Counted from the first letter of the stretch, positions 4,699-60,127 are shown. The stretch is 64,000 bases of DNA from Octopus sinensis (GCF_006345805.1 NC_043012.1:9176001-9240000); one strand, 5' to 3'. A program made the numbers and translations. The notes: a model not told the origin generated them from the sequence alone.

Positions 4699-4845
4699 CC
4701 TTATAATCACTTCTTACAGCTGTTTCAGCCTATGGCTAAAAGTAGATAATTTTATTTTCATTGCCTATACTCATACTGAGGTTGTAGGCATATAAAAATA
4801 GAGTACTTATATAAATAACCATAGGCCTCGTCAGAGGTTATACGG
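4699..4845 (-). ncRNA. Type I hammerhead ribozyme with ~100-nt extended stem II
   Basis: Minus: CCGTATAACCT-CTGACGA-GGCCTATGGTTA...TAGCCATAGGCT-GAAA-CAGCTG-TA-AGAAGTGATTATAAGG. Core intact, 12-bp proximal stem II, palindromic stem III, GUA site. Confidence 0.8.
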
Positions 4846-4997
4846 AACTTTAAAAATATCAATATTAATACATTAAACATGATACACGTATTATTTAATA
4901 TATATAAAAAAATAAACAAATATCAAAATAGCCACACACACACACACACACACACACACACACACACACACACACACATATATATATATATATATAC

Positions 4998-5800
4998 AAG
5001 TGAGATCATCCAGAACAAAGAACAACAGATGAAACGTTGGGTGGAGCACTACTACGAACTGTATGCAGGAAAAAACAAAGTTATCAAAGATGCCCTGAAC
5101 GCCATTGTGTGCTGGCCAGTCCTTGAAGAACTTGACAACGAACCATCATTTGAAGAGCTCACTGAAACGCTCTGTGGTGAATGCAATCCTGTGTCTCGGC
5201 TGGAAGAGGGGCGAAGTACCACAAGACACGAGGGATGCAGACGTCGTCACGCAGTATAAGAACAAAGGTGACAAGAGCGACTGCTGCAACTATCGCGGTA
5301 TCTCTCTCTTAAGTATCATTGACAAATTGTTTGCTAGAGTTGTACTGAAGAGGCTTCAAGTTCTCGCTGAGAGAATCTATCCGGGATCCCACTGTGGCTT
5401 CCGTGCTAACAGATCCACCATCGACATAGTCTTCTTTCTCAGGCAGCTACAGGAGAAATGCAGAGAACAACAACAACAGCCCCTGTACTTCGCATTCATA
5501 GACCTGACAAAGGCCTTTGACTTAGCAGGGAGAGCCTCCTTGCCATCCTCCACAGCAGTGAGTGCCCACCCCGACTCCTCAGTATCCTAAAGTCTTTTCA
5601 CGAAGACATGAAAGGTACTATTTTTTTCGATGGTTCAACATCAGATGCCTTCAACATCTAAAGTAGGTTGAAGCAGGGCTGGGTTCTCGCTCCAACCCTC
5701 TTTGGTATTTTCTTTGCTTTCCTTTTGAAACACGCCTTCGGTTCATCCACAGAAGGCATCTATCTTCGCACCAGGTCGGATGGGAAGCTGTCTAACTTAA
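4998..5800 (+). mobile_element. RTE (BovB-like) LINE reverse-transcriptase fragment, frameshifted
   Basis: YKNKGDKSDCCNYRGISLLS...CGFRANRSTID..LRQLQEKCREQ..PLYFAFIDLTKAFD, then LKQGWVLAPTLFGIFF in another frame. Confidence 0.9.
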
Positions 5801-7129
5801 ACAGACACAAGGCCATATCGTGTGCCTGAAAAATTAACTCCGTGGACGCCGTCCTTCAGTAGTCAATAATGAAATATTGAAATACACAGTGGAAGCTAAT
5901 CTTAGGACTACTGTTCGAGCTCTTCTCAATAAGTTAAAGATTTCGTTTTTGCAGTTTGCTCTTTTCTTTTTGTGCGAAATGAACGGGGATCTGCTATGAA
6001 AAATGAGTCCTTCATGACAACAGCAAAAGATCTTTGCAATAGCTAGATGCTGAAGAGCCACCTGAACACTTTTCACTCTCTTTACATTCCACAAAGTTTA
6101 TGGTTACTGCTTCGTGCTACTGTCGAGGAATCAGCCATTATTCGTTTCTGTAGCCAAGAGAGACATTAACATCTTACTCCTAGTGTCAGCAAAGTGAGGA
6201 AATGAATTCTAAATTAGGCAGGAAACACCAAGTATAAGCATGACTATGGCTGACCCCCACCATCGAAATCAGACCAAATCAAAGTTACAGTAGCTTAATT
6301 ATGAAATATTAGATCGTTATCCACCATCTCCAGACTTTTCGCCGACAGACTATTATTATCTTGCTATCTTGAACTTTTCAACCATTACGAAAAGTATGAA
6401 AGTAGTGATAACAGCATTTGAACGATTTATAGCTTCAAATAAAGTTTCCCCAATATATTGGGGAAAAAGTTATTGAATCTAATGCAATCTATTTTGATTA
6501 ATAAATAAGGATTATATATAGTGTTTTCTTATTCATTTCTAAGGGGCTATTTCGTATGTGAGATTTTCTTATTTCTCTGCTTCAGTTTATTAAACATCTT
6601 TTAAAATTGTATTTTCAAACCTTCTTTCATACATATTTCCACTCGTGCGGTACGTTACAACTTCACTTTGTTATATATATATATATATACATATATATAT
6701 CAATAATAACAAAGGGTAAAATTAATTAATTAAGAAGAAATCAATAATTTCACCAAGTAGAAATTATATATATATATAAATATATATATAGGGAGAGAGA
6801 GACTGAGAGGGAGAGAGAGAAAGAGACAGACAGATAGAAAAAGAAAAAATGGAGTATCGTTTATCATTTAGTTGAACAAAAAAAATATGAAGTTATTTGG
6901 AGTAACAAATATGGCGTCCATTTACTGGAATCGGTGTCCTTATGGTGCACTTTTATTATGATAAATTGTAGTCAACTTGTGTTTGCTTTGAAAAGAGTCT
7001 TTGCTTTGTTTTAAAGAATATTATTTAAGAACATATTATTAGGAAGAATATATCTTATCTATAGATTCAGTTTAGTCTTTTCCTATTTTTGTCTATTCAT
7101 ATTTACATAGGTATGTGTGGTGTGTCTGC

Positions 7130-7995
7130 ATATATATATATATATATATATATATATATATATATTATATATAATATATATATATATATATATATATATT
7201 ATATATATATAGTGCACATATATGTATGTATATAAGTATATATATATGTGCATATATGTGTATATAAGTATATATATATATATATATCTTCATATATATG
7301 TACAGATATATGTATGTTATGAATAAGTGAGTATATAGAACATAGATATATATAGCATATATATATATTATATATATATATCTATTATATATATTACATA
7401 TATATGGACATATATACATACATGAATACATACATATTCGTATATCTATACACACATGCATACATACATGTTAGTATATATATATATATATATGAATATT
7501 TATATAACATATACATACATATATGCATACATGCATACATTTACTATTCGTATAAGTATACATGCATATATACACACATACATACATATATACATACATA
7601 TACACACAAACATACTACATACATACATACATACATACATATATATATATATATAATATATATATTCATATATATATATATATATATATATATATATACA
7701 TATATATGACATATATACATACATGAATACATACATATTCGTATATCTATACACACATGCATACATACATGTTCGTATATATATATATATATATGAATAT
7801 TTATATAACATATACATACATATATGCATACATGCATACATACCTATTCGTATAAGTATACATGCATATATACACACATACATACATATATACATACATA
7901 TACACATACATACATACATACATACATACATACTACATACATATATATATATATGTATATATATACATGTGTATACATACGTGCATACATATATG
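7130..7995. repeat. Compound (TA)n/(TACA)n tract containing a ~300-bp tandem duplication
   Basis: acatatatacatacatgaatacatacatattcgtatatctatacacac occurs at about 7408 and about 7710. Confidence 0.85.
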
Positions 7996-8674
7996 GTTAC
8001 TGCTCCATCTTCACAGAAGACTGCTGTATTTCAGTATTGTCAGTAATATTTCTCACTTTACATGTCTTGTCCATGACTGCTCAGATGACTGTTGAATCAT
8101 GCAGCGGATCTGTGTTGCTTGAAACATTGATGTCAGACGAAAAGTGTAACTTGCACAAGGTTCATGAGGTTACTTTGTAGGATAAGGTGTTCCCCCCACA
8201 TCAAAGTTACATACAATTTTGCCTTGAAGTTGAACCTTCTCACTGACTAGGTCTACACATGTCGACACTTTTACACCGACATAGAGCTCCAATAAATTGA
8301 ATGATAAATGAATTCACCATAAAGAGATGTCTGTACCTCATTGGAATATTTTGATAAAACCTTGAGCAGCACGTGTACCATTCTATGTGTCTTCGTGGTT
8401 AGTACCTGGTGACAGGCGGAAGAGAGATGACTTAGAGAAAACTGCAGTTTCCCGTCTCCTATAAGGATGTTGTGACAATTGCTAGGAGTTCAATGGCCCC
8501 AGTGGTTTCAACGAGCGTTTCTCAAGTATTGCCTTTTCATCCTGCAGAGTGTCCAATATAAATCTCCCTCTTACCAGCTTGGTAGTATTGCAGGTCTAAT
8601 TACCAAATGCTCGACCATGGTGCAGGTTGTGTATATATATATATATATATATATATATATATATATATATATAT

Positions 8675-58021: not shown

Positions 58022-58450
58022 TTTCTTTTACTTGTTTCAGTCATTTCAGAGCTGCCATGCTGGAGCACCGCCTATTAGTCGAACAAATCGACCTTAGGAC
58101 TTATTCTTTGTAAGACTAGTACTTATTCTATCGCTAGGTCACGGGGACTTAAGCGCGCCAACATCGGTTGTCAAGCGATGGAGGGGGGGGATAAACACAC
58201 ACACACACACAAACATATTTACATAAACAAATACAGATATATATATATATATACATACATACATACATATATATATATATATATATATACATATATATAT
58301 ATATATATCCACTCACCAAATCGACTCACAAAGCTTTGTTCGGCCCGAGGCTATCGTAGAAGACACTTGTCAAGGTGCCACGCAGTGGGACTGAGACCGG
58401 AACCATGCGATTAGTAAGCGAGCTACTTACCACACAGCCACTCCTGCGCC
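58022..58450 (-). mobile_element. SINE family A
   Basis: Sequence match. Confidence 0.88.
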
Positions 58451-58579
58451 TAATTATATATATATATATATATAATGCATATACACACACACACACATAA
58501 GTATATATACATTGATATATGTACACACATACGTATAGATAGATATACACAGACATGCAGTAAGTAAATTTAAACCTTT

Positions 58580-59200
58580 AATTTTCAAAATCTTTTATTT
58601 AATACGCAAAGTGAAGAATTGAAATGTAATCGATAGGTAGGTCTACATACTTTAGTGTTTAGTTGACTTTCCCTTTTGCAGTTTTTAATTCAGAAACTCT
58701 TTTTGGCATTGAACTGATGAGCTTTGTGATGTCTCTTGTGGAATTTCTGCTCACTTTTCATGCAACAATCGAAACAATTCATCTTTAGATTTAGGTTTCT
58801 GTCGAGTTTTTCCTTTAGCTCTATCTAGTATGCTCCAAAGATCTTCAGTTGGGTTCATGTCAGGAAATTGGTTCGGCCAAGGAAGCTTTTTGATCCCATT
58901 TTCAGTCAGCAATTGTTGATTCCTTTTCGCTGTGTGGCATGGAGCCCCATCTTCCATGAATAAAAACTCATTTTTCGTTATGTTATCGTGTGAATACATT
59001 GGAAGTAGTCTTTGATTAAGTATTTCGATGTATGTTTCAGAGTTTATGGTTCCAACACATTCGATCAGCTCAGAACGACCATTGCTGGGGACAGCTCCCC
59101 ATACCATTACAGAGATACCGTCATGTTTCACAGTTGGTTGGAGGCGAGAATTCAGATGTAGGATTTCTGTGTTTGCACATGCGTATGACGTCCCCATAAT
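58580..59200 (-). mobile_element. Tc1 (DD34E) transposase C-terminal fragment
   Basis: VKHDGISVMVWG...FMEDGAPCHTAK...WPNQFPDMNPTEDLW; D-x34-E counted. Confidence 0.9.
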
Positions 59201-60042
59201 AACGTCGAACACCAGATAAATCGAAGTGATAGGTAGTACTATGATGAAATACGAGGCGGTAGATGGAGTAAAAATTAACTAGAAGAATTAACAGGGAGAA
59301 GTGGATTTGCAGCTAGACACCTTGAGTGGCAACACCATACCGTCCAATAGCGACGTTGGATGCTGGACAGTATGAGTGGATTAAATTGTTCGGGATTCGG
59401 TCCAAACCTCCAGGTGTACAAGAACTGGAGAAAACAGGGTGACTAGTTTTATCTAGTAACGAAATGAGACGAAACTGTCCCTGAAGGTTCGAGCGAGGGA
59501 GACGAATGCGAACATCACATCCGTCATCTACTATCAGCGCCTGACAGTCGTATCTCGTCCCGCCTATGTCGTTTTACGTTCTGTGTTCAAATCTTACGCG
59601 CATGAAAGTTGCCTTTTACCTTCCGAGAGTTGATAAAAATAAAATATCAGTTTAATAATGGGATAAATGGAATCGAATAGCTCCCTTAGCTCAAAATTGC
59701 TAACATTGTGTCTAAATTTAAAAAAAATATTATGGATTTAGCTGATGAGTAACTGAACTGGTATAATGGTAAAACGACAGAGAAAATTGAGGTAACCGTT
59801 TGACATTGTAGAGGTACATATAAAATGGCGAGAAGTAGCTGGTAACACACACACACACACACACACAACACACACACACACACACAGACACACACACACA
59901 CACACACACACACACACAGACACACACATACACACACACACACACACAGACACCACACACACACACACACACACACACACACACACACACACACACACAC
60001 ACACACACACACACACATATTTGAAAGAAGGTTTGAAAATGA

Positions 60043-60127
60043 AATTTTTGAAGATGTTTATTGATTTGACCGGTTTCACTTTCTTAAAAAAGTGAAATCG
60101 GTCAAGTCAATAAACATCTTTAAAATT
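60043..60127. repeat. 85-bp palindrome of a hammerhead 3' half plus AATAAA
   Basis: Each arm reads outward AAAGT-GAAA-(C/T)CGG-TC-AA(A/G)TC-AATAAA-CATCTT; lies between (CA)n and (TA)n. Confidence 0.8.

Follow-up and report, generated by a model that had tools for sequence, protein, structure and literature searches.

Hammerhead ribozyme families at (TA)n tracts in the Octopus sinensis genome, with predicted type-SGC permuted forms

The stretch analyzed here, hereafter the window, comprises 64,000 nucleotides (nt) of one strand of the Octopus sinensis genome (GCF_006345805.1 NC_043012.1:9176001-9240000), and carries 15 hammerhead ribozyme modules belonging to 12 families. At its left edge (1-270, minus strand) lies a GIY-YIG endonuclease relic, with one in-frame stop, of a Hydra-like Penelope-like element (PLE). 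A first-pass annotation made from the sequence alone had recognized this relic, and its tally of six near-intact and about six decayed or half motifs came out about right, with four intact motifs found by a structural scan and 11 further modules via relatives (four near-intact, seven decayed or half).

Hammerhead modules and their abundance

To be accepted by the type I scan, a match needed an exact core together with helices I and II, and its helix III had to be paired or palindromic. The narrower initial rules of the scan missed the copies at 16630 and 16639 on account of a U.U pair and a helix III insert of 14 nt; they were widened once after that pair had been seen, with shuffles and control blocks rerun under the same widened rules. 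Exact cores with three helices were found in the window at 4834(-), 16630(-), 16639(+) and 45704(-), all four in the type I motif order C-G-S with CUGANGA, GAAA, UH and helices I-III, although minimum-free-energy folds of the monomers agree only partly with the active hammerhead fold. Since 16630 and 16639 form one inverted pair, the four matches represent three independent loci. Shuffled sequence, the comparison proposed in the first-pass annotation, gave at most two matches: among 500 block-wise dinucleotide shuffles of the window, 475 had none, 23 had one, and two had two.

The intact type I module at 4510-4930 (minus strand; core 4834, 101-nt helix II arm, palindromic CAGCTG, GUA at 4715, 3' end at (TA)n) belongs to a family of 1786 candidates that are 85-92% alike. 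The inverted pair consists of a short copy at 16576-16635 (minus strand; core 16630) and a copy at 16632-16765 (plus strand; core 16639, U.U at the base of helix II, 3-bp helix III, GUA at 16677), both intact and both ending in (TA)n. This family is very young, with 40/40 scored copies 100% alike, and about half of its 25 loci (L312-L336) hold an inverted hammerhead copy, with the break at or near the same 6-nt helix I palindrome. The window pair folds as one hairpin of -98 kcal/mol that buries the ribozyme, and such a predicted fold would silence both members. The fourth intact copy, at 45445-45754 (minus strand; core 45704, CCTGCAGG, GUA at 45643), is a partial unit of a 431-nt retrozyme and has (TA)n on both sides.

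Near-intact modules were found through relatives. Three have a single core change each: 23639-23795(+), with core 23670 (A9>C), GUA at 23747, a (TA)n end and a weak family match of 68-74%; 31073-31262(-), a minimal PLE-type hammerhead with core 31206 (U16.1>C), an extra A, G10.1-C11.1 and its 3' end outside (TA)n; and 42924-43177(+), from an old type I family 75-80% alike, with core 42948 (G8>A), GUA at 43034 and an end without (TA)n. The fourth, type I, at 24785-25000(+), keeps an exact core (24797), with a long helix II, a bulged helix I, GUA at 24888, a (TA)n end and a 71% match to one relative.

Among the decayed or half copies, two belong to a family changed at position 6: the 3' half of a minimal hammerhead at 859-910 within 859-968(+), which lost the first core half and is followed by (ATCT)n, and a decayed minimal hammerhead at 21383-21454 within 21383-21501(+), ending in (TACA)/(TA)n. 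Loci L122, L187, L198 and L210 represent this family, which is abundant and has position 6 altered from A to U with the helices still paired. The CCGG (U3-A8) family is represented by a post-cleavage part with a tail of about 40 nt at 6580-6671(+), which has no core and ends in (TA)n, and by a fold-back of the hammerhead 3' half at 60017-60135 (no strand assigned), which lost the first core half and whose arms end in (TG)n and (TA)6. A decayed type I copy at 43175-43361(-) has A6>C and G12>A in its core (43290), and its relatives are intact. The remaining two copies, at 10052-10128(-) and 43869-43913(-), are of the permuted type treated below.

Multi-copy families that have intact relatives account for thirteen of the 15 modules; the other two (23670 and 24797) rest on one distant relative each. 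Across all fetched loci, GUA is the commonest cleavage triplet (24/42 families), and 26/42 have a perfectly palindromic helix III, although palindromes were partly required by the scan and a few singletons are probably chance; the first-pass description of mostly GUA sites and mostly palindromic stem III thus stands, whereas the single topology it had assumed fails for the two type-SGC modules. Candidates at 36028, 37123, 59742, 25340, 11250 and 63365 were rejected or left undecided and had no relatives among the fetched loci; those at 52104, 48990 and 35200 were repeats in which no hammerhead was found; and the one at 58714 lies inside a DDE transposase relic.

Genome-wide, 24 control blocks of 50 kb picked by position (1.2 Mb of the 2.7-Gb genome) contained 37 intact type I motifs (0 to 13 in a block), whereas 10 shuffles gave 0-2 over 1.2 Mb, an excess of about 40-fold for the strict scan. 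This density equals 2.0 per 64 kb (P(>=4)=0.14 for the window), and the window, described in the first-pass annotation as densely populated, is therefore average for its genome. Extrapolated from the control blocks, the genome would hold 59,000-82,000 intact type I motifs, which provides a census estimate for one genome, and the young identical copies are suited to assays.

(TA)n junctions and the route of insertion

Ten of the 15 window modules end at (TA)n and one at (TG)n, as expected from the earlier claim that most modules end in dinucleotide tracts. In the control loci, with arrays collapsed and four position-6 variants included, (TA)6+ lay within 200 nt downstream of the cut site at 17/30 loci, compared with 12.3% of random points (p=8e-9), and was not enriched upstream (4/31). 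Since enrichment is confined to the downstream side, the link is to (TA)n at the 3' end. (CA)n was not enriched within 200 nt downstream (1/30 vs 9%) and occurred upstream at 7/31 (p=0.02, one of several tests). The (TA)n distance check called for in the first-pass annotation thus bears out its proposed targeting of microsatellites for (TA)n, whereas (CA)n as a target is not supported. The window itself has 1.5 (TA)6+ tracts per kb vs 1.0 in control DNA. At the junctions, families break off at constant internal positions that fall on 1-8-nt TA patches, three families have a second 3' end 40-140 nt further on (a tail), and inversions and variable 5' ends recur among families. Internal tandem units run on without (TA)n, which argues that the tract is the target and not part of the unit, and tail-bearing copies keep the patch unexpanded.

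A coding element with matching ends lies at the window edge. The family of the 1-270 relic numbers 14,327 candidates, and to the left of the window this copy's open reading frame (ORF) ends after about 0.1 kb and its own decayed type I hammerhead follows at about 0.7 kb. Longer copies encode a reverse transcriptase (RT) with a C-terminal GIY-YIG domain in open frames of 535-657 aa, the Pfam GIY-YIG match being weak (E=0.029, in one of two ORFs). The 3' untranslated region carries a type I hammerhead, and the family ends at two fixed sites on (TA)n, with (TA)4+ after 16/24 end anchors. By eye, CxxC and CxH surround a conserved E and N in seven ORFs; DKT is present in L276, the only one of four loci reaching that far, where RWK reads RWL; and CCHH is absent. 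Hydra clade PLEs likewise have an RT with a C-terminal GIY-YIG, and their CxCX5C linker has been suggested to direct targeting (Craig et al. 2021, PMC8557442; this and the other published sources are cited from their accessible parts). That linker is absent from 7/7 ORFs (L275-L281), which have a long Asn-rich linker instead, and we therefore call the element Hydra-like and do not file it as a member of the clade. That a Hydra-like PLE ends on (TA)n although it lacks the zinc-finger linker credited with targeting speaks against such a role for the zinc finger. Moreover, because truncated 3' ends of a coding PLE would resemble the window modules, non-autonomy cannot be assumed family by family: the earlier proposal of many non-autonomous PLE- or retrozyme-like families holds for the origin and for the number of families, with non-autonomy shown only for the families of 45704 and of the permuted copy at 43879; copies of the other type I families are mostly 5'-truncated and were viewed with 1.5 kb of flank.

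Mechanistically, the fixed 3' ends on TA patches, variable 5' ends, tails and inversions are likely the footprint of PLE target-primed insertion, and we consider it highly probable that the modules are the 3' ends of a dozen hammerhead families joined to (TA)n at fixed points and inserted by a PLE endonuclease and RT. The GIY-YIG endonuclease would nick (TA)n DNA, and the 3' end released by the nick would likely pair with a UA patch (1-8 nt) in the element RNA. An element would have one or two such internal sites, fixed in position and 20-200 nt beyond the hammerhead on its 3' side, and reverse transcription would be primed at the paired patch, on uncut RNA. Copying would halt at variable points, sometimes inverting, such that the hammerhead-bearing 3' end mostly survives and later decays. 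The donors would be coding PLEs and ORF-less tandem passengers (non-long-terminal-repeat, or non-LTR, retrozymes), and the ribozymes likely serve the element RNA and not the host. Cleavage and transposition of all modules are predictions from sequence. In the Anolis Poseidon PLE, RT starts at fixed internal sites, two ends give a tail, and cleavage is dispensable in vitro (Frangieh et al. 2024, PMC11167929); the two alternative ends and inversions seen here match the tail and internal initiation of that system and the structures described in PMC8557442.

The 431-nt family of the 45704 copy shows how an ORF-less passenger may be copied. Its tandem units are spaced 428-434 nt in arrays reaching about 4.4 units, an intact type I hammerhead occurs in consecutive units at L282, L284 and L285 (some units have indels), and inspection by eye of four 10-kb array loci revealed no RT-like ORF. 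For the segment survey, one duplicate locus and one inversion were set aside and ten short loci were replaced by the four 10-kb loci. The segments end at unit position 199-201 in 24/25 cases, and their 5' ends scatter from 55 to 430; six of the 25 5' ends lie <=30 nt past a whole turn (p=0.006, for an interval set post hoc), the pattern that an enzyme running into its own starting point on a circular template would leave. Contigs of 460 and 457 nt span one whole unit across the cut site in runs guessed, not recorded, to be RNA, which fits a circle or a tandem and is no proof of transcription; in the same runs the single-copy stretch 43938-45407 had no cover, which is uninformative. The template was likely a circle or an uncut multimer and not a ribozyme-cut monomer, and the 5' ends just past whole turns favor the circle. 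Elsewhere in the genome, an array at L286 (G000:C18:20014000-20023900) of units of about 550 nt, ten with an intact type I hammerhead, represents another retrozyme family.

Several observations weigh against this account of insertion from uncut, possibly circular RNA. Three window modules end in no microsatellite and one in (ATCT)n; no ORF-less family has been tied to a particular PLE enzyme; and no homology at the priming site is reported in PMC11167929, unlike the TA patches here. In the 431-nt family, the cut site is the 5' end in only 1/25 segments, and the insertions accordingly give no sign of a ribozyme-cut template, while the near-one-turn cluster of 5' ends coincides with a TA-rich patch, and microhomology acting on the second strand could account for it with no circle involved.

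The alternative closest to this account, in fact a variant of it, is that the same enzyme copies the ORF-less families from linear multimeric array transcripts, with no circles. Arrays of the necessary kind exist, internal initiation by a PLE on uncut linear RNA has been shown (PMC11167929), and the TA-rich patch underlies the 5' cluster; the six 5' ends just past whole turns and the circular RNAs reported for other animal retrozymes (PMC7229834) argue the other way, leaving linear templates a tentative but real possibility. An unlikely alternative is tail seeding, whereby (TA)n grew from the elements' own 3' ends through patch slippage or untemplated addition and was never targeted. Every fixed end does coincide with a short patch of TA, enrichment out to 300 nt is found on one side only, and 6/22 independent 431-nt insertions have no TA on the 5' side; however, TA is present on both sides in the other 16/22 (hand count), the patch is not expanded in internal units and tail-bearing copies, and PLEs of the Hydra and Naiad clades are reported to favor insertion at (TA)n (PMC8557442).

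That the host keeps the ribozymes as regulatory self-cleaving sites in introns is very improbable. With 59,000-82,000 intact type I motifs extrapolated, many must fall in introns; however, 11/15 window modules are altered in the core, incomplete or weak in helix I, the cores and stems of old families decay alike, the inverted pair is buried in a hairpin, and retrozymes are depleted from Xenopus introns (bioRxiv 10.64898/2026.07.22.740005). Moreover, of the 514 window ORFs >=45 aa, 149 were scanned against Pfam and none scored above the cut-off as a host exon, the only well-scoring matches being RT and DDE transposase relics. Palindromic-helix-III hammerheads are reported to need dimers (PMC4209133), and the seeding of self-cleaving sites in introns, as the first-pass annotation had proposed, is weakened by this requirement together with decay and the 16630/16639 hairpin. 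Finally, chance matches in AT-rich repetitive DNA can be considered refuted by the 40-fold excess of strict scans in control DNA and by the family membership of 13/15 modules, with single relatives for the other two, even though CTGANGA by itself is not clearly enriched (37, both strands), a looser scan gave four matches vs about one in shuffles, and an Rfam scan, its output swamped by microsatellite hairpins, had no hammerhead among the best 150 of 288 rows.

The window also contains other repeats, and its short interspersed nuclear elements look octopus-like. Further short multi-copy modules without a hammerhead core abut (TA)n at 290-505, 6700-6765, 9240-9425, 16870-17010, 23836-23960, 34920-35060 and 46345-46530, and are likely the 3' ends of further PLE-type families. 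One (TA)n-ending repeat family, in direct and fold-back copies, occupies 35130-35345, 35680-35900 and 55620-55980, where no hammerhead was found. There are RT relics of the long interspersed nuclear element type at 5099-5760(+) and 38041-38400(-) (Pfam RVT_1), a Tc1/mariner-type DDE transposase relic at 58713-59278(-) (Pfam DDE_3, E=2e-10), a degenerate tandem array of about 30-nt units at 50390-50940, and long near-perfect inverted repeats at 9684-9900, 13564-14020 and 22761-22983, the last being two short interspersed nuclear element ends around a (CA)(TA)(TG) tract.

Predicted type-SGC permuted hammerheads

Two window families carry a predicted type-SGC permuted hammerhead, as judged from paired sequence changes. 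The copy at 9960-10418(-), with its 3' end beside (CA)7/(TA)10, has all three blocks of the ribozyme (10052-10128) with two core changes, G12>A and U4>A. The copy at 43660-43914(-), from a young family, is 5'-truncated and ends in (TA)n; blocks G and C are perfect (43869-43913) and block S is lost. The motif at 43879 had been regarded as an invalid half-motif, with GAAA before CUGANGA, a failing type II order and no helix I; this was dropped, as the S-G-C order fits. Structurally, the 43879 family has blocks in that order, a 5-bp helix I, a 3-4-bp helix II and helix III in an ORF-less unit of ~0.8-0.9 kb, with 14 SGC matches in the family loci, and 12/24 relatives of the 10128 copy have exact SGC cores with different stems.

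Three observations speak for the predicted fold. The pattern of blocks G and C alone yielded 3,952 exact matches vs 0 when the pattern was reversed. Block S, which was outside the search pattern, pairs better with its own partners than with others in 20 variants taken from the first 100 matches listed: the 115 Watson-Crick pairs were reached once in 5000 permutations (p=0.0002). In 13 in-register rows, 91% of cells pair, compared with 36-59% in slid controls, and two-sided changes occur in 7/14 pairs (3/5 in helix I and 4/5 in helix III). Inspection by eye also shows a candidate helix of 4-6 bp that would connect helices I and II on their outer sides. The type-SGC prediction must be weighed against the following: both window copies are defective, only 7/20 variants pair fully (about six having lost block S by truncation), 27/500 shuffles reach the SGC pair count in a shuffle test inflated by related sequences, and no two-sided change was seen in helix II among the 13 rows, which were themselves chosen as in register, with four of 17 earlier rows and the window copy left out and two added. 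In addition, a loose G-then-C scan was poorly separated from shuffles (24 rows vs 13-16).

Type-SGC non-circularly permuted hammerheads are known from metatranscriptomes and, as described in that source, from no known organism's genome (Eckert et al. 2023, PMC10085705). The accessible literature, which excludes subscription journals and bioRxiv supplements, held no report of type SGC in an animal genome and no cephalopod hammerhead survey. The supplement of PMC8557442 lists an octopus Naiad with a (TA)n preference and an 'HHR_half_core', an entry that, by its description, would fit the SGC reading. On balance, we lean toward an animal genome with thousands of active, doubly pseudoknotted type-SGC hammerheads in a (TA)n-targeting PLE lineage and ORF-less passengers, beside at least 40 type I families copied from TA-primed RNA circles. 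If so, the 'half-core' motifs of Naiad PLEs, including the octopus Naiad, would become complete ribozymes. Standard hammerhead descriptors miss the predicted type-SGC forms.

Comparison with known systems

Most of what the window holds is already known in kind, in that most modules add a large further set to the known PLE and retrozyme hammerheads at (TA)n, and the predicted SGC fold is the most surprising part. The edge element shares with Hydra clade PLEs (PMC8557442) the RT with C-terminal GIY-YIG, DKT, the lack of CCHH, CxxC/CxH, a canonical hammerhead and insertion at (TA)n, and differs in having an Asn-rich linker without CxCX5C and RWL for RWK. As with the Anolis Poseidon PLE (PMC11167929), there are fixed internal starts, two ends with a tail, an AT-rich target and no sign that cleavage is needed, whereas the start site there is not homologous to the target and ends here lie on 1-8-nt TA patches.

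The hammerheads of PLE pseudo-LTRs (Cervera and de la Pena 2014, PMC4209133) are similar in their type I order, short palindromic helix III, extra nucleotide after A9 with G10.1-C11.1 and U3-A8 variant, as well as in their extreme family diversity, mostly solo truncated copies and close opposite-strand pairs; unlike them, many families here have helix II arms of 50-100 nt and helix III inserts of 6-14 nt. Cephalopods were not found in the searched text of that paper. Metazoan non-LTR retrozymes (PMC7229834; bioRxiv 10.64898/2026.07.22.740005) are likewise built of tandem units without ORFs, each a few hundred bases long and carrying a type I hammerhead, and a PLE origin has been proposed for them. 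In the arrays here, by contrast, the 3' end is constant and lies on (TA)n while the 5' ends are random, which points to single RT events; the term 'target site' is absent from the main texts of both sources. The start sites mapped here make testable how retrozymes borrow PLE enzymes. Finally, the permuted forms agree with type SGC (PMC10085705) in the S-G-C order, the uninterrupted blocks, the short helix I-helix II linker and covariation in helices I and III, and differ in occurring, as predicted from their sequences, in thousands of copies within animal retroelements and with the PLE-type extra A.

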